The notes: generated by a model not told the origin, from the letters alone. A stretch of DNA of 64,000 bases from Streptosporangiales bacterium (GCA_050698355.1 JBOHBN010000209.1:663-64662); one strand, 5' to 3'. Positions 16,162 to 27,153 are shown, counted from the first letter of the stretch. Numbers and translations: made by a program.

Positions 16162-16184
16162 CCGCGCGGGTGGTCCAGGCCTGT

Positions 16185-16240
16185 GGGCCGCAAAGTGCCC
16201 TTGGTGCCCCTATGAAGGCATCATGGGCACCTTGCGGCCC
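16185..16240. terminator. Bidirectional hairpin between convergent gabD and the gvp cluster
   Basis: GGGCCGCAAAGTGCCC (16185-16200) pairs with GGGCACCTTGCGGCCC (16225-16240). These are 16-nt arms with one mismatch. Confidence 0.55.
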
Positions 16241-16274
16241 CATGTGAGCGTGACGGGCACTATGCGCCCTGGCC

Positions 16275-16490
16275 CTAGGAGAGTGACTGGACGCGCTTGA
16301 GCATCGGGATGCTCGGGAAGCGATCGTCGCGGATCTTGGTGAGCAGTAGCTCGGCGTAAGCGGGCACCTCGTCGGGCTCGAGCAGCGACTCGATCATGTC
16401 GAGCATGGTGTACGAGGGGTAGATGTCCTCGTCGACCTTGCTGATGAGCATGTCCAGCAGCTGTTCGCGAACGGACTGGTCTTCTGCCAT
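16275..16490 (-). CDS. Small acidic hypothetical protein (71 aa), last gene of the gas-vesicle operon
   Basis: MAEDQSVREQLLDMLISKVDEDIYPSYTMLDMIESLLEPDEVPAYAELLL... It is preceded by a duplicated SD-like GGAAGGACAGGAAGGACAGG. I recognise no family. Confidence 0.5.
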   Translation of the reverse strand: MAEDQSVREQLLDMLISKVDEDIYPSYTMLDMIESLLEPDEVPAYAELLLTKIRDDRFPSIPMLKRVQSLS

Positions 16491-16529
16491 TGCCTGTCCT
16501 TCCTGTCCTTCCTGGCTCCTGCGCCGGCG

Positions 16530-16817
16530 TCACGCCAGCAGGGTTCCGAGCGGGCCGAGATCGATGTTCAGGTCCTCGGGGTTGATGCCGTACCGCTCCT
16601 CCAGCTGTGTCATGGCCTGCTCGAGCCGCATCAGCCCACGCCCGAGGTCCTCGACCTGCTCCTCGGTCAGGTCGCCCTGGTCGACGCGGCGCAGCGCCTG
16701 CCGTTCCATCAGCTGCCGCACCAGCTCCACGATGGTGAGCACCAGCCGCAGCAGGTCGCGCTCGACCGCGTCCGGGTCGGTCTCCAACCGGTGGGGAAGG
16801 GTGCGTACGTCACTCAT
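16530..16817 (-). CDS. gvpK: Gas vesicle protein K
   Basis: 95 aa with RDLLRLVLTIVELVRQLMERQALRRVDQGDLTEEQVEDLGRGLMRLEQAM, a classic GvpK core. Confidence 0.85.
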   Translation of the reverse strand: MSDVRTLPHRLETDPDAVERDLLRLVLTIVELVRQLMERQALRRVDQGDLTEEQVEDLGRGLMRLEQAMTQLEERYGINPEDLNIDLGPLGTLLA

Positions 16818-17005
16818 GTCTCTGCCTCCAGCTCGCTGCGTACGGACATCAGCAGCGCGTGCAGCTTGATCTGGACGAGGTCGACGCCGGACAACGAGAT
16901 GGTGATGTCGCCGGCGAGCACGACCCCCGTGCCCAGCAGCCGGTCGAGCAGGTCGACCAGCGCGACCTGCCGCCTCGGCTGCTCGGTGACGGTGTCAGCT
17001 GTCAT
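16814..17005 (-). CDS. gvpS: Gas vesicle protein S (small GvpA/J-family member)
   Basis: Internal ATG at 17005 of the 192-aa track ORF gives a 63-aa product MTADTVTEQPRRQVALVDLLDRLLGTGVVLAGDITISLSGVDLVQIKLHALLMSV. It overlaps both neighbours by 4 nt. Confidence 0.8.
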   Translation of the reverse strand: MTADTVTEQPRRQVALVDLLDRLLGTGVVLAGDITISLSGVDLVQIKLHALLMSVRSELEAET

Positions 17006-17763
17006 GCGTTCTCCAGCTCCGCGAACGAGTAGGGGGGCCACGGCCCGGTCAGCTCGAACCGTACGCTCGGCAGCCGCGACTCCAACCGGCTGACGGCTGC
17101 CTCGAGGTCCCCGGTTCGGTCCCGTTCCACCAGGTACGCACCGTTGAGGATCATCCGGCCCGCGTAACCGCCGAGCCGCTGGTCCTGCGCCGGATGGCGC
17201 CGGCTCGCCACGCCGACCGCGGCCAGCTCGGCGTGGATCTCCTCGCCCGTCGCGGCGGCCGCCCGCTCGTGCTCCTCGCGCTGCGTGGTCTCGGCCCGGC
17301 GCCGCTGCAGGTACGCGGTCCCGGACTCCGTGGCGGAGTCCTCCGGGACGCTGCGCGCGGCGGCGTCGTCCAAGTACGCCTTGATGCCGCACTCGGTGCG
17401 GCCGTCCAGCCGGGCGAGGGTGCTCTCGATGCTGTCGCGCCGCTCGTCCAGCGTGCGGCGCACCCCGTCGTCGTCCAGATAGACAGTGGCGAGGCGCAGC
17501 GGCGCGACCGAACCGCTCGCCGCCAGCGCCCCCACGACCTGGTTGTGTGCACGCGCGACCCGTTCGAGCCAGCCGAGATCCTCCAGGTTCGCGCGCAGCG
17601 CCTCCTCGCCGAACTCATCCAGGCTCACCGTGCTGACCGCCGCGGCGAGGCCGTCCTGGTCGAGGGTTCGCACCGGCGCGTCCGAAACCCCGCGTACGTC
17701 CTCGAGGGAAGCGGCGGCCTCGCCGCGCGTGATCGCGTAGAGGTAGGTGCCGGTCTCAGCCAT
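17002..17763 (-). CDS. gvpL: Gas vesicle protein L (GvpF/L family)
   Basis: YLYAITRG...VRTLDQDGLAAAVSTVSLDEFGEEAL..NLEDLGWLERVARAHNQVV matches the GvpL/F family. Start is ATG 17763, or GTG 17772 as an alternative. Confidence 0.8.
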   Translation of the reverse strand: MAETGTYLYAITRGEAAASLEDVRGVSDAPVRTLDQDGLAAAVSTVSLDEFGEEALRANLEDLGWLERVARAHNQVVGALAASGSVAPLRLATVYLDDDGVRRTLDERRDSIESTLARLDGRTECGIKAYLDDAAARSVPEDSATESGTAYLQRRRAETTQREEHERAAAATGEEIHAELAAVGVASRRHPAQDQRLGGYAGRMILNGAYLVERDRTGDLEAAVSRLESRLPSVRFELTGPWPPYSFAELENA

Positions 17764-18124
17764 CGCGGTCACCCCCTTCGTCTGTACCGGGTTCCAGCGC
17801 CGACACGCGCTGGCGCAGGCGCTCGTTCTCCTCCTCCAGCTCGCGGTTACGCGCGGCAGAGCTCAGCGAGGGGTCGTCTTTCCACCAGTCGATCCCCATC
17901 TCGGCCGCCTTGTCGACCGACGCGACCAGCAGGCGGATCTTCACTGTCAGCAGCTCGATGTCGAGCAGGTTGACCTTGATGTCGCCCGCGACGACGATGC
18001 CCTTGTCGAGGACACGTTCCAGCACGTCGGCGAGGTTCGCCGGCTGGGGAGCCGGCGTCGTCGACGCCCTGCTGGCCGGGGCCTGGTAGCCGTCGCGGCC
18101 ACGAGCGAGCTGGTCCACGGTCAC
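17756..18124 (-). CDS. gvpJ: Gas vesicle protein J
   Basis: 122 aa with NLADVLERVLDKGIVVAGDIKVNLLDIELLTVKIRLLVASVDKAAEMGIDWW (GvpA/J fold). Confidence 0.85.
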   Translation of the reverse strand: MTVDQLARGRDGYQAPASRASTTPAPQPANLADVLERVLDKGIVVAGDIKVNLLDIELLTVKIRLLVASVDKAAEMGIDWWKDDPSLSSAARNRELEEENERLRQRVSALEPGTDEGGDRDG

Positions 18125-18441
18125 TCCTCGTGTAGTTGGGCGCGGGTGTACCGCCTGAGCCGCCGGTACGAGAGCAGGTCACCGTTCTCGTCCAGGTCGG
18201 CCTGGTAGACGGCCATGACATCGGCGGTCTCCGGAACCCGGTGGATCTCCAGGACCTCCACCTCCAGCTGCCAGCCGTCGTCCGTACGCGACAGCGCCGT
18301 GACCGCCTCCGCGTTACGCTGCGTCAGCTCGGCCAGCTGCTGTGCGCCCGTCCGCGCCACGGCGGCGGCTCCCCGCTTGCGGCCCGCGGTTCGCGACTGC
18401 GTGCGCCCTTGCTTGTTGGTGTTCTCGTCGGCGGTCGTCAT
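18121..18441 (-). CDS. gvpO: Gas vesicle protein O
   Basis: 106 aa with AQQLAELTQRNAEAVTALSRTDDGWQLEVEVLEIHRVPETADVMAVYQADLDENGDLLSYRRLRRY, a typical GvpO. Confidence 0.8.
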   Translation of the reverse strand: MTTADENTNKQGRTQSRTAGRKRGAAAVARTGAQQLAELTQRNAEAVTALSRTDDGWQLEVEVLEIHRVPETADVMAVYQADLDENGDLLSYRRLRRYTRAQLHEE

Positions 18442-18463
18442 TGGCTCCCTCCGTCCGCCGGCC

Positions 18464-18688
18464 TCATGCCCGCAGCAAGCGGGCCATCAGCTGGTTCTCC
18501 AGCTCGTCGGCCTCTTCGTCGCTGAGCACGCCCGCCGCGCGGGCCTCGTCGACCTCCTCCAGCTGGCGTCGGATCGTCGCCGGGTCGTAGTACTCGGCCT
18601 CTGCCTGCTCGCGTACCCGCTCCGCGATCCACGCGGTCGCGCGTACCGGTGCAAGCGGCAACGTCAGCAGTCCGGTGAACAAGCCCAT
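18464..18688 (-). CDS. gvpG: Gas vesicle protein G
   Basis: 74 aa MGLFTGLLTLPLAPVRATAWIAERVREQAEAEYYDPATIRRQLEEVDEA..., a GvpG signature. Confidence 0.85.
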   Translation of the reverse strand: MGLFTGLLTLPLAPVRATAWIAERVREQAEAEYYDPATIRRQLEEVDEARAAGVLSDEEADELENQLMARLLRA

Positions 18689-18689
18689 G

Positions 18690-19442
18690 TCAGTCGCCCG
18701 GTACGAAGTCGTACGGTGCCTGTGGACCGATCAGGCGCAGCCTCATCCGTGCCGACTCTCGCTTGCCGAGGCTCTCCACCGCTTCCTCCAGGCCCGTGTG
18801 CCCGGTGCGGTCCACGAGCAAGGCGGCGTCCAGCACGTCCTCTGGCGTCCCCGGCTCGCGGCTCTCGACGGCGCGGATGTGAGGATCAAGCGCGTCGAGC
18901 ATCGCCGCCGCGTCGGCCGCGGCCTTGCGGCCCAGCACTCCGACGACGAGTTCGCCCAAGCGGACGCTCTGCCCGTACACCGGCTGTTCTCGCGTGGCGG
19001 TGCTGAGGTGCTCGATCTCCGGGTCCTCTGCGACGATCTCGCGCAGCAACGGCTCCTCGAGGTAGCGAGCCCGCAGCGTGTACTGCACCGCTCCCGCGAG
19101 CTCGGCGAGCAGCTCGGCATACCGGTCGAGCGCGGGCCCCAAGCCCGCCTCGAGGGTGCCCTCGTCCGCGACGGTGCCGAACCGCAGCGGCAGAACATCG
19201 CTTCGCGCCGCGACCGCGTCGAGCACCCGGCTGTGCGCGAGCAGGTCGTCGCGGGTCGTGATGTCCCGGCCGGCCTCGATCGGGCTGGCGAGCAGCGCCA
19301 GGTCAGCGGCATCCAGCAGCACGAGGTCGCGCGCGCCGCCGACACCCACCAGATCGCCCGGAAGGTCACCGCGTGCGGCCATGACGCCGTACAGGTAGTA
19401 CGCGGTCGCCTGGCTCGCCTGGCTCGCCTGCGCCGCGGTCAT
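18690..19442 (-). CDS. gvpF: Gas vesicle protein F (GvpF/L family)
   Basis: 250 aa with [49 protein letters not shown] overlap with gvpA. Confidence 0.8.
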
Positions 19443-19894
19443 CGCTCGCTCGAGGATCTACGGCGCGTCTGTTGTTGGCGCGGCTTCTCTGTTTGCTGGG
19501 ACCGTCGCCTGGGCTGGCGCTCGGATTCGCTCTCGTCCTTGTCCTCGTCGGAATCGCCGGTCAGCGTTTCCTTGATGCCCGACAGCGCGCCGGCGGTCTT
19601 GCCCTTCGCGCCGCCCTCGGTCATGCTCTCCATCATCTCGGGCAGGTCCTTGCCGCCCTGCTGCGTGAGGTCCAGCCTGCTCGTCGCCTCCGCGAAGCGC
19701 AGGTAGGTGTCGACGCTCGCGATGACGATGCGGGCGTCGATGGTGAGCAGCTCGATGCCCACCAGCGAGACGCGGACGTAGGCGTCGATCACCATGCCCT
19801 TGTCGAGGATGGTGTCGATGACGTCGGCGAGTGAGCTCGCCTGCGGGCGGTCGACGTACCCGCCTCTGGAACGCTGCGTCGTTGCGACAGTCAT
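19439..19894 (-). CDS. gvpA: Major gas vesicle structural protein GvpA with a long charged C-terminal extension
   Basis: 151 aa. The core [51 protein letters not shown] is near-canonical GvpA. About 75 further residues are rich in D/E/K/R/Q/S. Confidence 0.9.
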
Positions 19895-19897
19895 GGG

Positions 19898-21019
19898 TCA
19901 CCTGCTCCTTCCAGACGTCGCCGGGCGGCGAGTCCTGCGATTGCGGGGTGCTTCCTCGGCCGGTTCTTCCGGCGCTTCCTCTTCCTCGTCCTCCGGCGCT
20001 TCCTCTTCCTCGTCCTCCGGCTGTTCCTCGTCCTCGTCCTCCGGCTGTTCCTCGTCCTCGGCTGCCGGCTCCTCCTCGGGCGACTCCTCGTCGTCCTCGT
20101 CCTGTGGCTCATCTTCAGACCCGGGCGGCTCCTGATCGTCTCGGCCCTCGCCGCTCTCGTCCTGGTCTTCCTCTTCCTCGGCCAGCGCGTCCTCGTGGCT
20201 CTTGACGACCTCGCTGTCACGGATCTCGCCGCGCCAGCCCTCGACGTCGTCGGGGTCGAGGATCGTCTGGGTCATCACGTGCCGGCGGAAGTGCTTGAGC
20301 TCGAGCCGGGCACGGCGCCCCTGCGCGCGCCACAGGTTCCCCGTCTTCTCGAAGAAGCCCTGCGGGTGGTACTCGAGCACCACCAGGATCCGGGTCAGGC
20401 GCGGGCCGAGCTCGTGGAAGGTGACGGTTCCGTCGACGTGGCCCTTCTGTCCCGATGAGCGCCACACGATGCGGTCGTCGGGAACCTGCTCGGTGATGGT
20501 CGACTCCCAGGATCGGTGCGACCAGAAGACCTGAGCCTTCAGGTTGACCTTCCCGTCCTCCTCCTGCTCGGCGTGCTCCACCTTCTTCATGAAGCTGGTC
20601 CAGTCCTGGTACTGCGTCCACTGGTTGTACGCGACCCGCACCGGTACGCCGACGTCGATGTCCTCGACGATGTTGGTGACCTTCACGTCACCACCTCCTC
20701 CGCCGCTCGAGCCGCCGCCCAGCGCTTCCTTCACCTTGTCCCCGACGCCGGAGAAGACCCCCTTGAGCGCACCCTTCGCCGGGGACCCACCCTGAGCGCC
20801 TTCCTGTGCCCCCCGTATCGCGGCCATCAGGCCCGGGCCGCCCTTGTCGTTCGCGTACTCGGTGAGCCGCTCGGTGAGACCCTGTGCCTGATCTACCAGG
20901 GAGTTGGCGCCCCGCTCCGCGAATGCGAGTGCCACGTTCTTCAGCTCGTCCTTCAGCCGGTCGGTGGGAAGGTCGCGGGCAAGCTCGCCCAGGCCGGGTG
21001 TGCTCTTCGCGTCAGCCAT
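19898..21019 (-). CDS. SRPBCC (cyclase/dehydrase-like) domain protein with helical/Gly-rich N-terminus and a poly-acidic, then basic, C-terminal tail
   Basis: Start at ATG 21019 (MADAKSTPGL). The central part VKVTNIVEDIDVGVPVRVAYNQWTQYQDWTSFMKKVEH...IVWRSSGQKGHVDGTVTFHELGPRLTRILVVLEY looks SRPBCC-like. The tail is EEEDQDESGEGRDDQEPP..EDEEEEAPEDEEEEAPEE..RNRRTRRP. It lies directly upstream of gvpA. Confidence 0.65.
   Translation of the reverse strand: MADAKSTPGLGELARDLPTDRLKDELKNVALAFAERGANSLVDQAQGLTERLTEYANDKGGPGLMAAIRGAQEGAQGGSPAKGALKGVFSGVGDKVKEALGGGSSGGGGGDVKVTNIVEDIDVGVPVRVAYNQWTQYQDWTSFMKKVEHAEQEEDGKVNLKAQVFWSHRSWESTITEQVPDDRIVWRSSGQKGHVDGTVTFHELGPRLTRILVVLEYHPQGFFEKTGNLWRAQGRRARLELKHFRRHVMTQTILDPDDVEGWRGEIRDSEVVKSHEDALAEEEEDQDESGEGRDDQEPPGSEDEPQDEDDEESPEEEPAAEDEEQPEDEDEEQPEDEEEEAPEDEEEEAPEEPAEEAPRNRRTRRPATSGRSR
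19971..20060. repeat. Tandem 24-bp repeats (about 3.75 units) inside the acidic-tail coding region
   Basis: GGCGCTTCCTCTTCCTCGTCCTCC occurs twice (19971-20018). GGCTGTTCCTCGTCCTCGTCCTCC follows about 1.75 times (20019-20060). Together they encode the EEEAPEDE/EDEEQPED repeats. Confidence 0.9.
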
Positions 21020-21566
21020 TGGACTTGCTCCCTCGCTGCCGCGACGAGCTCTTGGTCGACCTGCTCGAGCTCGTCGACTTGCGGCGGGAACTCGTCGAAC
21101 CCCCGCGACTGGAGCTGCTGCGCTTGCGCGCCGGCTGCGGTTCGGGTTCGGGCTCGGGCTCTTCCTCGTCGTCGGCCGATTCCTCGTCGTCGTCGGCAGG
21201 TTGCTCATCGGACGGCGGTTCCTCGTCCGCGGGCGGCTCCTCCTCGCCGGTACCCTCCGATCCGGGGGACCGCAACTGCGTCGCGCGCTGCTGGAGCCGA
21301 TCGCTCAGCGCGTCCATGCCCTTGCCGGCAGCCGCTGCCGCGGCCTCGCGGCCCGCGTCGGCGAGGCGGCCGCGTGCGTCACCGCCAATGCGCTGCAGCG
21401 CCGGTGAGGACTCGAGCAGGTTCTTGCCCTGCTCGAGCAGCGCGGTTCTGTCCAGACGCTTGCCGGCGGCAACCGCGCCGAGCATCAAGGCGAGCTTCAT
21501 CTTCTTGGTCCGGCCGAGGGCGTAGCCGATGGCTATGCCGAGCGCGACCGTACCTTGCGATTTCAT
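21012..21566 (-). CDS. Hypothetical protein: N-terminal hydrophobic segment, Ala-rich helical region, poly-acidic stretch, Ser/Arg/Lys-rich tail. First gene of the gvp operon.
   Basis: Start at ATG 21566 (MKSQGTVALGIAIGYALGRTKKMKLALMLGAVAAGK), preceded by GGAGAG. The C-terminus is ..EEEPEPEPEPQPARKRSSSSRGGSTSSRRKSTSSSRSTKSSSRQRGSKSNG. It overlaps the next gene by 8 nt. Confidence 0.55.
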   Translation of the reverse strand: MKSQGTVALGIAIGYALGRTKKMKLALMLGAVAAGKRLDRTALLEQGKNLLESSPALQRIGGDARGRLADAGREAAAAAAGKGMDALSDRLQQRATQLRSPGSEGTGEEEPPADEEPPSDEQPADDDEESADDEEEPEPEPEPQPARKRSSSSRGGSTSSRRKSTSSSRSTKSSSRQRGSKSNG

Positions 21567-21858: not shown

Positions 21859-22524
21859 TCAGGCCTGGTGTGGCGCCAAGCGGCCGATCGCGTCGTGCAT
21901 GTGGTCCTCGAGCAGCGCCAACGCGCGGTCGGTGTCCTGCTCCTTGATCGCTTCGACAATGCTCGCGTGCTCGGCGGCGAGGTCCGCGGGCGCGTGGTAC
22001 TTGCTCGGCAGCGCGGCCATGCACATGCGTGTCTCGACGAGCAGCGTACGCGCCATGCGTTCCAGTCGCGCGCTGCCCGACTCGGCGACGAGCACCTCGT
22101 GGAAATCGAGGTCGCTGCGGCTCAGCGCCGCGTGGTCGCGTTTCTTCGCGGCCCGCTCCATCCGGGCGGCGGCCTTGCCGAGGCGGTTCGCCGCACCCGG
22201 GTCCGCCTGCTGGACGATCATCGTCACCGCGGCGCCCTCGACCGCCATCCTGGCGGCGTAGATGTCGTCAATGTCCGCTGGGGTCAACTCCGTTACGAAA
22301 AGGCCGCGGTGCCGGACGCTGCGAAGCAGGCCCTCCTGCACCAGCCGCTGCATCGCCTCGCGCAACGGTCCGCGGCTCACGCCGAAGCGGGCGGCGAGGT
22401 CCGCCTCGCCGAGCTGGTCACCCTGGGCCAGCGCGCCGGACATGATCGCCTCGCGCAGTTGGTCGGCGATGAGGCCCGCGGTCGGTTCGCGGCTGATCGG
22501 CTTGAGCGAGTCGGCTGGCGCCAT
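21859..22524 (-). CDS. GntR/FadR-family transcriptional regulator
   Basis: 221 aa with GDQLGEADLAARFGVSRGPLREAMQRLVQEGLLRSVRHRGLFV (wHTH) plus an FCD-type C-terminus. It starts 3 nt after the stop of the upstream isomerase-like gene. Confidence 0.85.
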   Translation of the reverse strand: MAPADSLKPISREPTAGLIADQLREAIMSGALAQGDQLGEADLAARFGVSRGPLREAMQRLVQEGLLRSVRHRGLFVTELTPADIDDIYAARMAVEGAAVTMIVQQADPGAANRLGKAAARMERAAKKRDHAALSRSDLDFHEVLVAESGSARLERMARTLLVETRMCMAALPSKYHAPADLAAEHASIVEAIKEQDTDRALALLEDHMHDAIGRLAPHQA

Positions 22525-22527
22525 CGC

Positions 22528-23286
22528 CTATGCCCTTGCGCGATCCGGCGACAGGCGGAACAGCGCGCCGAGCCCGGCGGCCCGCTCGTGGTGGCCGGCG
22601 AGCCGCAGCCCCTCCCAGGCGGTGACCTGGTTCGCGGTGAGCACGGGCTTGCCCGCCGCGGCCTCCATCGCGTCGAGCCATGCGACGGTGTGCAGGGCTG
22701 TGTCGGGCAGGAGCACGGCCTCGGCGTCAGCGGCACCGCTCTCGGCGGTCGACGCCGCGAGCTCCAGCACCGCCTCCCGGCCGAGGTCACCGACGTCGGC
22801 GGCCTGCAGGATGTCCTTGCTGGTGAACGACACCACCTCGATGCCGCCGGCCGCGAGGAACTCCACGAACCTGGCGGCGATGCCCTCGGGGTACGTAGCC
22901 GCGACCGCGACCCGGCGCACGCCGAGCGCGTGCGCAGCCTCGACGAACGCGATGGACGTGCTGGACGCGGGTACGTCGGCGGTCGAGGCCAGGGTGTCGG
23001 CCTGGTCACGCGCGCCGTCCCAGCCGAACACGAAGCTGCCGCTCGTACACGCCCACATCACGGCGTCCGGGCGGTGCGGTGCCAGCTGACGCCACCCTGC
23101 GGCCAGCTCGTCCGGCTGACCGACGGCGAGCAGGTTGTCCTCGGTGTGGGCGACGTCGTCCGGCGTGGTGTGCACGAGCGGGAGCGCGACGCTGGAGCCG
23201 AGCAGCCGCTCGACGCCTGCGTAGTCGTCCTCGGCCGCGTAGCCGGGGTAGAGCATGCCGACGGTCGTGTTCTCGGCCACGAACAC
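22528..23286 (-). CDS. Asp/Glu/hydantoin-racemase-superfamily protein (maleate cis-trans isomerase / arylmalonate decarboxylase-like)
   Basis: 252 aa with VGMLYPGY..., MWACTSGSFV (first Cys motif), RRVAVAATYP and GKPVLTANQVTAWEGLRL, typical of the maleate isomerase family. Confidence 0.7.
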   Translation of the reverse strand: MFVAENTTVGMLYPGYAAEDDYAGVERLLGSSVALPLVHTTPDDVAHTEDNLLAVGQPDELAAGWRQLAPHRPDAVMWACTSGSFVFGWDGARDQADTLASTADVPASSTSIAFVEAAHALGVRRVAVAATYPEGIAARFVEFLAAGGIEVVSFTSKDILQAADVGDLGREAVLELAASTAESGAADAEAVLLPDTALHTVAWLDAMEAAAGKPVLTANQVTAWEGLRLAGHHERAAGLGALFRLSPDRARA

Positions 23287-23302
23287 CTCCAGGGCAGTCG
23301 CT

Positions 23303-23336
23303 GATTGTTGACAATCCTACTGGCCCTTCCTAGCGT
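23303..23336 (+). promoter_or_regulatory. Sigma-70-type promoter (TTGACA-N17-TAGCGT) embedded in an ATTGT-N2-ACAAT operator, upstream of the DUF3830 gene
   Basis: GATTGTTGACAATCCTAC-N9-CTAGCGTCA. The -35 is at 23308-23313 and the -10 at 23331-23336. The 18-mer and the CTAGCGTCA are identical to the copy at 24721-24754. Confidence 0.6.
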
Positions 23337-23383
23337 CAACACCTACCATCGTCGGCACGTCGAAACGAAGGTGGAGGCCCAGA

Positions 23384-23884
23384 TTGGCCAGATACATCGA
23401 GATCTCCTTGGACAAGCGGGGCGTGACCTGTGTCGCGCAGCTGCTCGACGACCTCGCTCCGCGTACGTGTGAGGCGATCTGGAAGGCGCTGCCGGTGGGG
23501 TCCGACGCGTACCACGGCAAGTACGCGCGCAACGAGATCTACACCCTCGTCCAGGCGTTCGCCGACCCCGAACCGGGTGCGGAGAACACCACCATCACCC
23601 CCATCCCCGGCGACCTGTGTTACTTCTCGTTCCCGAAGGCGGAGATAGCGACGCCCTCGCACGGGTACGGCACGTCCGAGGAACCGTACAAGGCGGATCG
23701 GATCGTCGACCTCGCGCTGTTCTACGAGCGGAACAACCTGCTGTTGAACCCGGACTCCGGCTTCGTTCCCGGCAACGTGTTCGCCACCATCACACAGGGC
23801 CTGGCCGACATGCGGGAGGCGAGCGAGGACCTGTGGAAGCGCGGCGTCGAGGGGGAGACGCTGACGCTCCGCCGCAAGGAGTAG
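23384..23884 (+). CDS. DUF3830-family (cyclophilin-like fold) protein
   Basis: 166 aa MARYIEISLDKRGVTCVAQLLDDLAPRTCEAIWKALPVGSDAYHGKYARNEIY..PGDLCYF. TTG start after GAAGGTGGAGG. The family call is from memory of DUF3830 sequences. Confidence 0.6.
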   Translation: MARYIEISLDKRGVTCVAQLLDDLAPRTCEAIWKALPVGSDAYHGKYARNEIYTLVQAFADPEPGAENTTITPIPGDLCYFSFPKAEIATPSHGYGTSEEPYKADRIVDLALFYERNNLLLNPDSGFVPGNVFATITQGLADMREASEDLWKRGVEGETLTLRRKE

Positions 23885-23894
23885 GCCGGGCAAC

Positions 23895-23938
23895 GTGTCA
23901 GTAGCTCAGCCCGCTACAGCGAGCTGAGCTACTGACAC
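23895..23938. terminator. Perfect 16-bp-stem hairpin between convergent genes. Member of the ACTGACA palindromic repeat family.
   Basis: GTGTCAGTAGCTCAGC (23895-23910) / GCTGAGCTACTGACAC (23923-23938). Confidence 0.6.
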
Positions 23939-23942
23939 CCGG

Positions 23943-24686
23943 TCAATCGAACAGGCGCTGGCCGTTCGGCGCCGCTGTGCCGCCGCAGCTGCGCAGCGCC
24001 GACCAGATGCTCACCTGGTTGGCGGTGAGGACCGGCTTGCCCAACGCGCGCTCGAGCGGCGTGATCGCGTCGAAGGTCGGCAGGTTCGTGCAGCTGACGA
24101 ACACCGCCTCCGCGTCCGGCCGGTCGGCGGCGAGCACGAGCTGTACGAGCTCCGCGTACGGCACGAGCCAGATGTGCTCGAGCAGCCCGAGGTGCGCGCT
24201 GGACACGACGGTGACGCCCGCCTCGGCGAGGAAGTCGTGCAGGCGAGTCGTCATGCTCTCCACGTACGGTGTCGCGACCGCGAGCCGGCTGATGCCGAGG
24301 TAGTTCACGGCGTCGAGCAGCGCGCCGGAGGTCGTAACCGCAGCGGGCGCGCCCACCGACCCGATGGCCTCCCGCAAGTCGCGCTCGCCGGCCATGCCGT
24401 GCACGAAGCTGCCCGAGGTGCACAGGTAGACGACCACCTCGGGCTCTGCAGTCAGCACCTCGGCGGTACCTGCCTGGACGGTCGCGTAGTCGCTCACGAG
24501 CTCGGCCATCTCGACGGTGACGGGGACGGCGAGACGCGGCGTGCGCGTGATGTGCAGCGATGTGGTGTCCGGCACCCATCGCCAGACCTCCCGGTCCAGC
24601 GCGAAGTCGTACGGGGTCACGATGCCGATCCCGTGTTGAGGCAGGACTTCTGCCACCTCGACGGGAACGCGCACGGTCTGCTCCAA
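23943..24686 (-). CDS. Second Asp/Glu-racemase-superfamily (maleate-isomerase-like) protein
   Basis: 247 aa with IGIVTPYDF, VVYLCTSGSFV, SRLAVATPY, FVSCTNLPT and GKPVLTANQVSIWSALR. It is a paralogue of 22528-23286. Confidence 0.7.
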   Translation of the reverse strand: MEQTVRVPVEVAEVLPQHGIGIVTPYDFALDREVWRWVPDTTSLHITRTPRLAVPVTVEMAELVSDYATVQAGTAEVLTAEPEVVVYLCTSGSFVHGMAGERDLREAIGSVGAPAAVTTSGALLDAVNYLGISRLAVATPYVESMTTRLHDFLAEAGVTVVSSAHLGLLEHIWLVPYAELVQLVLAADRPDAEAVFVSCTNLPTFDAITPLERALGKPVLTANQVSIWSALRSCGGTAAPNGQRLFD

Positions 24687-24720
24687 CCAGCCACCTCCGC
24701 TTCCGACGACGCCGCCGCGA

Positions 24721-24754
24721 GATTGTTGACAATCCTACGGTCGCTGTCTAGCGT
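24721..24754 (+). promoter_or_regulatory. Second copy of the promoter/operator module (TTGACA-N17-TAGCGT)
   Basis: GATTGTTGACAATCCTAC-N9-CTAGCGTCA. The -35 is at 24726-24731 and the -10 at 24749-24754. A GTG at 24762 lies 7 nt after the -10. Confidence 0.6.
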
Positions 24755-24761
24755 CACGGCG

Positions 24762-25733
24762 GTGGCCAACCCTCCAGAACTCGTCGTGCTGTGCGATGAC
24801 TCCCGCCCGTCCGGCATGGAGGAGGTCGAGCGGCTCGCGCGTGTCCGGTACGTACAGCCCGCCGAGCTGCCCGACGCGATCGGTGACGCCGACGCGCTGT
24901 TCATGTGGGCGTTCCAGTCGACCGCGCTGGCCGATGCGTGGCCGCGCGCCCACCGGCTGCAGTGGGTGCACACGGCGAGCGCCGGCGTCGACCGGGTCCT
25001 GATCCCGGAGGTCGCGAAGAGCGACGTGGTGGTAACCAACTCCCGTGGCGTGTTCGACGACGCGATCGCCGAGTACGTGCTCGGCCTCGTCCTGCTGTTC
25101 GCCAAGGGCATGCACGACACGCTCGCCCGGCAACGCACCCGTACCTGGGAGCACCGGGATACCGAGATGGTGGCCGGCCGGTCGGCCCTCGTCGTCGGTG
25201 TCGGGCCGATCGGCCGGGCGGTGGGGCGGCTGCTGGCCGCCGCCGGCATGCACGTGAGCGGGGTCGGGCGTACGGCGCGTAGCGAAGACCCGGACTTCGG
25301 TACGGTGCTGGGGTCGGCGGACCTCGCCGACGCGTTGCCGGCGGCCGATTACGTGGTGGCCGTGGCGCCGCTCACCGAGGAGACGAGGGGGATGTTCGAT
25401 GCGGCCGCGTTCGCCCGGATGCGGTCCACCGCACGATTCATCAACGTCGGGCGCGGTCCGCTCGTGGTGGAGCGCGACCTGATCGCGGCGTTGCGCGAGG
25501 AACGGATCGCCGGCGCGGGACTCGACGTGTTCGAGGAGGAGCCCTTGTCGTACGATTCCCCGCTGTGGTCGATGTCCAACGTCGTCGTGTCCCCGCACAT
25601 GTCCGCCGATTACGTCGGTTGGCTGGATACGCTCGCCCGCGTGTTCGTCGATAACTTCCATCGCTGGCATGGTGGAGAAGAGTTGCGAAACGTCGTCGAC
25701 AAGTGGCTCGGTTACGTGCCGTCAGCCCCATAG
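24762..25733 (+). CDS. D-isomer-specific 2-hydroxyacid dehydrogenase family protein
   Basis: NAD-binding motif VVGVGPIGRAVGRLLAAAGMHV, plus INVGRGPLV and AGLDVFEEEPL. The start was set at in-frame GTG 24762 (MANPPELVVLCDD) and the mRNA is probably leaderless. The track ORF start at 24174 is antisense shadow. Confidence 0.8.
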   Translation: MANPPELVVLCDDSRPSGMEEVERLARVRYVQPAELPDAIGDADALFMWAFQSTALADAWPRAHRLQWVHTASAGVDRVLIPEVAKSDVVVTNSRGVFDDAIAEYVLGLVLLFAKGMHDTLARQRTRTWEHRDTEMVAGRSALVVGVGPIGRAVGRLLAAAGMHVSGVGRTARSEDPDFGTVLGSADLADALPAADYVVAVAPLTEETRGMFDAAAFARMRSTARFINVGRGPLVVERDLIAALREERIAGAGLDVFEEEPLSYDSPLWSMSNVVVSPHMSADYVGWLDTLARVFVDNFHRWHGGEELRNVVDKWLGYVPSAP

Positions 25734-25746
25734 GAGGTAGCCGAGC

Positions 25747-27153
25747 ATGGCAGACACTGAGGGTGCGCTGCGCACCGCGGCGCAGCTCGTCGCCGCGTAC
25801 AAGCAGGGCGACCTCTCCCCGGTCGAGGCCACCCAGGCGACCCTAGACCGCATCGACCAGCTGAACGACACGGTCAACGCGTACTGCCTCGTCGACCGCG
25901 ACGCCGCCCTCGCCTCCGCGCGCGCGTCCGAGGCGCGCTGGCGACGCGGCGAGCCGAGCGGCCCGGTGGACGGCGTCCCGACCTCGATCAAGGACATGTT
26001 CCTCACCGCGGGCTGGCCGACGCTACGCGGTTCACACACGGTGAGCGAGGACCAGAACTGGGACGAGGACGCGCCGTGCGTCGCCCGGCTTCGCGAGACC
26101 GGCGCGGTGCTCGTCGGCAAGACCACGACGCCCGAGATGGGCTGGAAGGGCGTCACGGACAGCCCGCGTACCGGGGTCACCCGCAACCCGTGGGACCTGT
26201 CGAAGACCCCCGGCGGGTCGAGTGGGGGGAGCGCGGCGTCGGTCGCCCTCGGCATGGCACCACTCAGCGTCGGCACCGACGGGGGTGGCTCGGTACGCAT
26301 ACCAGGCGCGTTCAGCGGCGTCTTCGCGCTGAAGCCGACGTACGGCCGGATCCCGATCTACCCGCCGAGCGCGTTCGGCACGCTGTCGCATGCGGGTCCC
26401 ATGACGTGGACCGTTGAGGACGCGGCGCTGCTGCTCGACGTGGTTACCGGGCCCGACGGCCGGGACTGGTCCGCGCTCCCCGAGCCCGTGGGCTCGTACA
26501 CCGGCGGGCTCGGCAGCGGCGTTCTCGGCCGGCGCGTCGCGTTCAGCCCGGCACTCGGCTACGTCGACGTCGACCCGGAGGTCGCCGCCGTGGTCGCGTC
26601 CGCGGTCGACGTCCTCTCCGGGCTCGGCGCGCAGGTGGAGGAACGCGATCCGGGCTTCACCGACCCCATCGATGCCTTCAACGTGCTCTGGTACTCCGCC
26701 ACCGCGAAGATCGTGGAGCCGCTGTCCGACGAGGATCGTGCGCGCCTGGATCCGGGGTTCGCGGAGGTCGCCGAACTGGGTGCCGGCTACTCCGCGGTGG
26801 ACTATCTCGGTGCCAACGCCGAGCGGATGAGCCTGGGCTCGATGATGGGCAGGTTCCACGAGACGTACGACCTGCTCATCACACCGACCGTCCCGATCCC
26901 GGCGTTCGACGCCGGGCAGGAGGTACCGACCGGCTGGCCGCACAAGAGGTGGACGAGCTGGACGCCGTTCAGCTACCCGTTCAACATGACCCAGCAGCCG
27001 GCAGCGACGGTTCCTTGCGGGTTCACCTCGGGTGGGCTTCCGGTCGGGTTGCAGATCGTGGGCCCGCGGCACGCGGACGGACTCGTGCTCTCGGCTGCCA
27101 AGGCCTTCGAGGACGCCCGGCCCTGGACGGATCACCGGCCGCAGCCCGCGTAG
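25747..27153 (+). CDS. Amidase-signature (AS) family amidase
   Basis: 468 aa with GVPTSIKD, GGSSGGSAASVA and GTDGGGSVRIPGAFSGVFALKPTYGRIP (the Ser-cisSer-Lys signature region). Confidence 0.9.
   Translation: MADTEGALRTAAQLVAAYKQGDLSPVEATQATLDRIDQLNDTVNAYCLVDRDAALASARASEARWRRGEPSGPVDGVPTSIKDMFLTAGWPTLRGSHTVSEDQNWDEDAPCVARLRETGAVLVGKTTTPEMGWKGVTDSPRTGVTRNPWDLSKTPGGSSGGSAASVALGMAPLSVGTDGGGSVRIPGAFSGVFALKPTYGRIPIYPPSAFGTLSHAGPMTWTVEDAALLLDVVTGPDGRDWSALPEPVGSYTGGLGSGVLGRRVAFSPALGYVDVDPEVAAVVASAVDVLSGLGAQVEERDPGFTDPIDAFNVLWYSATAKIVEPLSDEDRARLDPGFAEVAELGAGYSAVDYLGANAERMSLGSMMGRFHETYDLLITPTVPIPAFDAGQEVPTGWPHKRWTSWTPFSYPFNMTQQPAATVPCGFTSGGLPVGLQIVGPRHADGLVLSAAKAFEDARPWTDHRPQPA

Follow-up and report, generated by a model that had tools for sequence, protein, structure and literature searches.

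The 64,000-nucleotide stretch of a Streptosporangiales metagenome-assembled genome (MAG) analysed here (GCA_050698355.1 JBOHBN010000209.1:663-64662; hereafter the window) carries a gas-vesicle (gvp) gene cluster. Eleven co-directional open reading frames (ORFs) on the minus strand, extending from 21566 to 16275, form a single operon as judged from the ORF list and a reading of the sequence. The genes follow the order X1-Q-gvpA-F-G-O-J-L-S-K-X3, i.e. gvpY-gvpZ-A-F-G-O-J-L-S-K with an additional small trailing gene (Table 1). Profile searches assigned nine of the eleven ORFs above the curated cut-offs of Pfam and NCBIfam, and the gene positions and gvp assignments given in an earlier description based on the DNA alone (the sequence-only reading) proved accurate. 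The region is best interpreted, with a probability of roughly 0.85, as a complete and conventional actinomycete-type gvp operon with the layout that prevails among the closest actinobacterial clusters.

Table 1. Features of the gvp operon and its 3' flank, with positions counted from the first nucleotide of the window.
Feature	Position	Strand	Evidence
X1, gvpY-type, 184 aa	21012..21566	-	ORF with ribosome-binding site; Y-slot homology with Streptomyces collinus
Q, gvpZ-type SRPBCC/START protein, 373 aa	19898..21019	-	PF03364; 46 % identity to S. collinus Z-slot protein
24-nt tandem repeat (5.4 copies) within Q, coding for the acidic 8-residue units of its tail	19950..20078	.	
gvpA, long form, 151 aa	19439..19894	-	PF00741; NF006872, 171 bits (cut-off 151)
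gvpF	18690..19442	-	PF06386, E 7e-48
gvpG	18464..18688	-	PF05120, E 2e-24
gvpO	18121..18441	-	PF05800, E 2e-31
gvpJ, GvpA-like minor protein	17756..18124	-	PF00741, E 3e-15
gvpL, start GTG 17772 or ATG 17763	17002..17772	-	PF06386, E 2e-62
gvpS, GvpA-like, 63 aa	16814..17005	-	PF00741, E 2e-14
gvpK	16530..16817	-	PF05121, E 2e-35
X3, acidic mini-protein of an unnamed family, 71 aa	16275..16490	-	ORF; no family match
Hairpin 3' of X3, before the convergent aldehyde dehydrogenase gene	16181..16245	.	Folding compared with shuffled sequences

GvpF, G, O, J, L, S and K are all present, each scoring above the Pfam gathering threshold. GvpA polymerises to form the ribbed gas-vesicle shell, the GvpA-like proteins GvpJ and GvpS are implicated in the formation of its cones and tips, and GvpF/L, G, K and O serve as assembly factors. 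The core of the window GvpA stops near residue 76 of 151 and aligns with the shell chains of the cryogenic electron microscopy structures 7R1C (E 2e-21) and 8GBS (E 1e-20); the charged extension of ~75 residues beyond it, which the sequence-only reading had pointed out, is thus real. It is a known subfamily feature, since the model of the long-GvpA subfamily (NF006872) covers it, spanning residues 12-147. GvpN was not detected among the ORFs of the window, some of which were not profile-scanned, with the three P-loop ORFs corresponding to an amidase, an ABC ATPase and an ORF without matches. Likewise, GvpC was not detected, with no repeat array of 99-nt period (33 residues) found anywhere in the window. 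The gvp clusters of Streptomyces coelicolor lack both GvpN and GvpC (PMC4982088).

The genes are closely packed. The earlier statement that most junctions overlap by 1-17 nt holds roughly, with overlaps of 4-17 nt at six of the ten junctions (X1/Q 8 nt, A/F 4, O/J 4, J/L 8 or 17, L/S 4 and S/K 4), while the other four are gaps of 1-39 nt (Q/A 3 nt, F/G 1, G/O 22 and K/X3 39). A 115-nt stretch containing the hairpin beyond X3 (16162-16276) has a folding energy of -65.1 kcal/mol, with a z score of -3.97 relative to shuffled sequences. This hairpin, which also turns up as a spurious microRNA-like Rfam match, is not listed by a consensus terminator scan because it lacks a T-run. It is probably a bidirectional terminator which ends the operon, and its location 3' of X3, facing the aldehyde dehydrogenase gene, places X3 inside the transcription unit. 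Consensus promoter and terminator scanning and an Rfam search of the region yielded chance-level matches only, and no second gvp set was found within the window.

To place the cluster among its relatives, eighty species-level genomes encoding the GvpA proteins closest to that of the window were sampled from at least 571 relatives, with the returned relatives all belonging to the Actinomycetota, and all eleven families were mapped onto these eighty loci by tblastn and iterated profiles. The order A-F-(G)-O followed by J was observed in 72 of the 74 loci in which the order is readable, including those of the deep-branching Thermoleophilia, with the only exceptions being Amycolatopsis samaneae (L080; O-A-F-G-X1-Q-J-L-S-K) and an Actinoplanes MAG (L069). 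A gene coding for an SRPBCC protein lies directly upstream of gvpA in 60 of the 66 loci with at least 2.5 kb of upstream DNA, and X1 precedes it in 49 of the 66, all among these sixty. The leading genes can thus not be considered lineage-specific, as had been suggested. The window layout is found in Brevibacterium, Kribbella, Nocardioides, Amycolatopsis, Pseudonocardia, Kitasatospora, several Streptomyces, Mycobacterium and Nocardia; identical order and gene families are shared by Nocardia bhagyanarayanae, Pseudonocardia, Amycolatopsis, Kribbella, Nocardioides, Kitasatospora, some Streptomyces and a Mycobacterium sp. (L001, L005, L010-L085). Retrieval of the surroundings of X1 homologues in N. 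bhagyanarayanae and Pseudonocardia gave the same order (X1-SRPBCC-A-F-G-O-J-L-S-K), while the Solirubrobacterales and Thermoleophilaceae retain the SRPBCC gene without X1.

The published order in S. coelicolor is gvpO-A-F-G-Y-Z-J-L-S-K (PMC5839063, PMC9501494); for its clusters I and II, PMC5839063 tabulates this order after van Keulen et al. 2005. Both clusters comprise the same ten gene families as the window, among them a long GvpA, a Y-type protein and a Z-type SRPBCC protein; they contain neither gvpC nor gvpN. The sequence-only reading was correct in placing gvpO between G and J, unlike in S. coelicolor, but its view of a non-standard order with a relocated gvpO is not borne out by the synteny comparison: the order in the window is common among the eighty closest loci, and that of S. 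coelicolor is the minority layout there. Given that the order reaches the Thermoleophilia, parsimony makes it more likely that Y-Z-A-F-G-O-J-L-S-K is ancestral and that the S. coelicolor order is the rearranged variant. Gene order is furthermore unsound as a defining feature of the S. coelicolor-type cluster, because the alternative order was found in 72 of the 74 loci.

Several variants of the layout were observed. In eleven Solirubrobacterales and Thermoleophilaceae loci, a START-domain gene lacking the N-terminal region of Q (QN, see below) is present without X1, the genes gvpS and gvpK are separated by an additional GvpL/F-like gene, and gvpK is often followed by X3. Eight loci of Brevibacterium, Georgenia, Isoptericola, Sinomonas and Enteractinococcus, which belong mostly to the order Micrococcales, show the arrangement Y-Z-A-F-G-O-A'-K-L, where, in place of J-L-S, a second GvpA-like gene is found ~1.3 kb ahead of gvpK. 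A Streptosporangiaceae MAG (L034, 16269-17839) encodes a second X1-Q pair ~2.5 kb beyond the first cluster's gvpK, which may mark the beginning of another gvp cluster. Decayed clusters also exist. Only X1, the SRPBCC gene, a 63-residue GvpA-like gene and GvpF are left in Streptomyces albidoflavus (L003, 8001-10701), while SRPBCC-A-F-O-J and a truncated L are carried on the 52-kb Rhodococcus opacus plasmid pRop44186_b (L113), and gvp clusters thus occur on plasmids too.

The gvpY and gvpZ genes of S. coelicolor are annotated merely as (conserved) hypothetical proteins (PMC5839063, PMC9501494). A search with the SRPBCC protein of A. samaneae L080, which has more than 6217 relatives, led to a Streptomyces collinus cluster; the 120 relatives listed, none of which bears the name S. 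coelicolor, are mostly annotated as "SRPBCC family protein" and belong to Amycolatopsis and Streptomyces. The S. collinus cluster (L086) reads GvpO-A-F-G, then a 239-residue protein without Pfam match and an SRPBCC protein, then J-L-S-K, and corresponds gene for gene to the S. coelicolor order, with A. samaneae L080 showing the same layout of the Y and Z slots. The S. collinus protein in the Y slot aligns along its full length with the X1 profile (E 3e-28) and shares 41 % identity with X1 by BLASTP (E 5e-16). Similarly, the Z-slot protein matches the profiles of both QN and the START domain (QS) of Q, and shares 46 % identity with Q over 292 residues (E 2e-74). On the basis of this homology to the Y-slot and Z-slot proteins of a cluster with the S. 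coelicolor order, X1 is classified as a gvpY-type and Q as a gvpZ-type gene. The two leading genes, which had been left unassigned, would thus belong to families named before, and gvpO and the Y-Z pair appear to have exchanged places relative to S. coelicolor.

Profile searches with the three proteins left unassigned by the sequence-only reading place Q in the SRPBCC family PF03364, while X1 and X3 match no Pfam or NCBIfam model. For X1 this also holds at permissive thresholds, with residues 1-105 giving no Pfam match at E<=10, and its 35 database homologues are without exception annotated as "hypothetical protein". A YtxH/GvpP-like (PF12732) identity for X1 was considered but is unsupported, given the same lack of any Pfam match for residues 1-105. 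YtxH was furthermore absent from the 25 families listed of the 30 obtained with 31 homologues at E<=1, and those listed were of a low-complexity type.

The invariant motif G-Y-x-L-G-R (G14, Y15, L17, G18 and R19) lies in the hydrophobic N-terminus of X1. A stretch of ~60 residues predicted to be helical comes next, and the protein closes with an acidic block and a basic Ser/Arg/Lys end. In 62 homologues the X1 tail has a median length of 124 residues, with 35 % acidic residues before the last thirty and 30 % basic residues within them. In Q, a helical N-terminal region (QN; residues 1-112), modelled with low confidence, is followed by a START helix-grip domain (~115-254), where PF03364 (Polyketide_cyc/SRPBCC) matches residues 123-243 with 60.6 bits against a cut-off of 23.4. 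Beyond it are a conserved extension, WRGEIRD..VV.SHEDA, which is invariant in 25 sequences, and a poly-acidic tail, partly derived from the 24-nt tandem repeat, which ends in a few arginines. Alignment shows the initial methionine of Q to be almost invariant, in support of a start at 21019. The AlphaFold2 (AF2) model of Q shows a START fold with a beta-sheet and a long C-terminal helix. A Foldseek search of the Protein Data Bank (PDB) gave 320 matches at E<=1e-3, of which the fifty best listed are all generic START/Bet v1-type proteins with 10-24 % identity. The core of Q thus shares the helix-grip fold and hydrophobic cavity of the SRPBCC/START superfamily (PF03364; Coq10/RatA, aromatase-cyclases, Bet v 1 and PYR/PYL), to which the ~110-residue helical N-terminus, the WRGEIRD..SHEDA extension and the long acidic tail are added when compared with solved START proteins.

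The resemblance between the two tails that was noted earlier is conserved across both families, with the acidic-then-basic pattern found in the 62 X1 homologues and most Q homologues, and it is repeated in the GvpA extension. Residues ~54-99 of X1 (21270-21400) and ~20-64 of Q (20830-20960) were also aligned by hhalign (probability 58 %, P 1e-4); a shared helical module is possible, the signal being too weak for a claim. The QN region also exists as a separate cluster-side gene, as a stand-alone 124-residue ORF without Pfam match in Pseudonocardia (L005, 7430-7804) matches the QN profile, and QN-like stand-alone ORFs lie ~600 nt upstream of X1 in four further loci. Both the 24-nt repeat of the Q tail and a 9-nt repeat at the start of gvpF (2.8 copies, 19406-19430, encoding QASQASQAT) could differ in length among strains.

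The trailing gene X3, which has no counterpart in the S. coelicolor clusters, encodes a protein without Pfam, NCBIfam, PDB sequence or PDB fold match, also at permissive thresholds, and without profile similarity to the other Gvp families of the operon; a search against plasmids likewise gave no match. It consists of two ~33-residue helix-YPS-helix repeats with the consensus LL.K(V/I)..D.YPS..ML..I. Alignment of the two halves by hhalign (probability 98.5 %, E 4e-15) points to an internal duplication, and the AF2 model comprises four helices with a confidence (predicted local distance difference test, pLDDT) of 83. A word-index search returned 11 matches, while by profile the family extends to 440 clusters at 50 % identity; 218 of these have E values under 1e-10, and most lengths fall at 70-80 residues. 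A search of 5.8 billion proteins did return X1 of the window contig but not its exact X3, for which the best match is 80 % identical; one possibility is that the ORF was left uncalled in the MAG annotation.

In support of the sequence-only reading, this small gene recurs beside gvp clusters, being present in 17 of the 80 GvpA-anchored loci and in three positions. It follows gvpK on the same strand in Nocardioides astragali, several uncultured Actinomycetota, Solirubrobacterales and Thermoleophilaceae, and follows gvpK on the opposite, convergent strand in three loci (L020, L026 and L031). In Kribbella it lies upstream of X1. Three soil contigs (L088-L090) carry X3 after gvpK as in the window, one of which (L090) also has the convergent aldehyde dehydrogenase gene, while most relatives with the Y-Z-A-F-G-O-J-L-S-K order lack X3 or carry it elsewhere. 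In Kribbella-type loci a gene of ~70 codons for a DUF6458 membrane protein directly precedes X3, giving DUF6458-X3-X1-Q-gvpA (L112, 8771-8986, and seven further loci); no DUF6458 homologue was found in the window.

The linkage between X3 and gvp genes is thus recurrent and tolerant of position, yet not obligatory. X3 could be a bystander, unconnected with gas vesicles, whose gene is found close to gvp clusters in certain lineages. Homologues outside a gvp context are consistent with this, namely those of the well-sampled P0038 lineage (L107-L109) and L094, which lie beside a convergent TauE gene and lack gvp genes over the 3-5 kb available; around the homologue in L107 (2882-3100; 68 % identical), the DNA free of gvp genes extends 2.9 kb upstream and 5.2 kb downstream. 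So are the small share of gvp loci that carry X3 and its occasional location on the opposite strand. However, when retrieval was anchored on X3 itself, four of the five database clusters examined lay in gvp clusters, and gvp genes adjoined X3 in nine of fifteen metagenome contigs, the rest being mostly too short to judge. The association furthermore persists in all three positions (3' of gvpK, either co-directional or convergent, and before or divergent from X1) and spans two classes of Actinomycetota, and in the window X3 lies within the operon, upstream of the terminator hairpin. A bystander role is therefore considered rather unlikely, and a functional tie of X3 to gas vesicles, as suggested by its genomic context, is the likelier reading. 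Because strand and position vary, a separately acting partner or regulator is favoured over a stoichiometric shell component. In the loci lacking gvp genes, a rhodanese gene follows the TauE sulfite-exporter gene (L107-L108), and a P-loop ATPase fragment is found just upstream of X3 (L107 and L109).

The Bacillus megaterium cluster (gvpA-P-Q-B-R-N-F-G-L-S-K-J-T-U) has F, G, L, S, K and J in common with the window, and its gvpR is an O-like gene according to the GvpOR grouping in a figure legend of PMC10903477. As in the window, two uncharacterised genes (gvpP and gvpQ) lie directly upstream of the functional gvpA/B copy, and might conceivably correspond to Y-Z, but gvpN, gvpT and gvpU are present, unlike in the window operon. 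The acidic disordered region of B. megaterium GvpU drives vesicle clustering and phase separation (bioRxiv 10.1101/2023.06.01.543273). The likeness of the X1, Q and GvpA tails to GvpU is one of composition, with an acidic block and a basic end conserved family-wide. By this analogy, electrostatic co-assembly through the tails is a reasonable hypothesis.

If the operon is functional, GvpA would polymerise into the shell, GvpJ and GvpS would shape its cones and tips and GvpF/L, G, K and O would assist assembly, which would proceed without a GvpN ATPase or GvpC stiffener as in S. coelicolor. More tentatively, GvpY may be anchored through its hydrophobic N-terminus, GvpZ may supply a START-type hydrophobic pocket or surface, and the block-charged disordered tails of GvpY, GvpZ and GvpA may mediate electrostatic co-assembly or vesicle spacing, with X3, instead of contributing to the shell, acting as a small accessory or regulatory protein. 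The more ambitious combination, in which X3 is an unrecognised gvp accessory or regulatory factor and the GvpA, GvpY and GvpZ tails also form a scaffold replacing the roles of GvpC, GvpN and GvpU, must be considered doubtful.

Alternatively, the operon may be gvp-derived without producing buoyancy organelles in this soil organism, being either cryptic or serving in protection against osmotic or other stress or in the storage of Arg/Glu-rich protein, roles which have been proposed for the S. coelicolor gvp genes. In that species no vesicles have been observed, gvp expression responds to salt and to ArgR, and gvpN, a gene required in other systems, is missing from the clusters (PMC5839063, PMC4982088). 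GvpN and GvpC were undetected in the window as well, which is a partial test, and the remnant clusters of S. albidoflavus and the Rhodococcus plasmid fit the same explanation. On the other hand, all ten gvp genes of the window are intact and translationally coupled, and the core of GvpA is strongly conserved when set against the shell proteins of vesicles with a known structure. Gas vesicles have furthermore been reported in Streptomyces sp. CB03234-S, as cited in PMC7376271. As the ten-gene set is intact, tightly coupled and maintained across many genera, its conservation argues for selection on an assembled structure. An operon without vesicles is thus an improbable, though by no means negligible, alternative to a conventional gas-vesicle operon.

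In addition to the X3 homologues outside gvp clusters, several points weigh against the interpretation as a conventional, functional operon with the prevailing layout. The term "prevailing" applies to the GvpA neighbourhood of the window, i.e. eighty of at least 571 relatives. The equation with gvpY and gvpZ is a positional match, made through the S. collinus proteins rather than SCO6503 and SCO6504 themselves. The roles suggested for GvpY, GvpZ and X3 are tentative proposals, and vesicle formation by the window operon would be a prediction from its genes. Finally, the S. coelicolor clusters are described as cryptic, with deletion leaving buoyancy unchanged, in PMC5839063 and PMC4982088, which cite van Keulen 2005. 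The converse notion, of an unusual cluster with a relocated gvpO and three recruited lineage-specific, unassigned scaffold genes, is highly improbable: the order does differ from that published for S. coelicolor (PMC5839063, PMC9501494) and X1 and X3 lack Pfam and NCBIfam models, but the same order extends over many taxonomic orders and the Thermoleophilia, X1 and Q occur in most clusters and fit the gvpY and gvpZ slots, and X3 is spread over two classes.

The operon is flanked by ordinary metabolic genes. Directly upstream (21859-27150) are encoded a GntR/FCD regulator, two arylmalonate-decarboxylase-like proteins, a DUF3830 protein and an amidase, which have the appearance of a separate catabolic group. 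A GntR/FCD gene likewise precedes the DUF6458-X3-gvp cluster of a Joint Genome Institute (JGI) soil contig. A role of the upstream GntR/FCD gene as gvp regulator is unsupported; the gene heads the Amdase/DUF3830/amidase group.

Taken alone, the cluster contributes little, as a further actinomycete gvp operon in which only X3 is mildly new. The survey around it, however, corrects a textbook impression, in that the S. coelicolor order represents a minority layout among the clusters closest to the window. It also pins down what gvpY and gvpZ are likely to encode, namely a protein with a hydrophobic N-terminus and disordered tail and an SRPBCC/START protein, respectively, and flags the small, unnamed X3 family as a candidate extra gvp partner. 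The resulting gene list may be of use for reconstituting GvpN-free and GvpC-free actinomycete vesicles as acoustic reporters.

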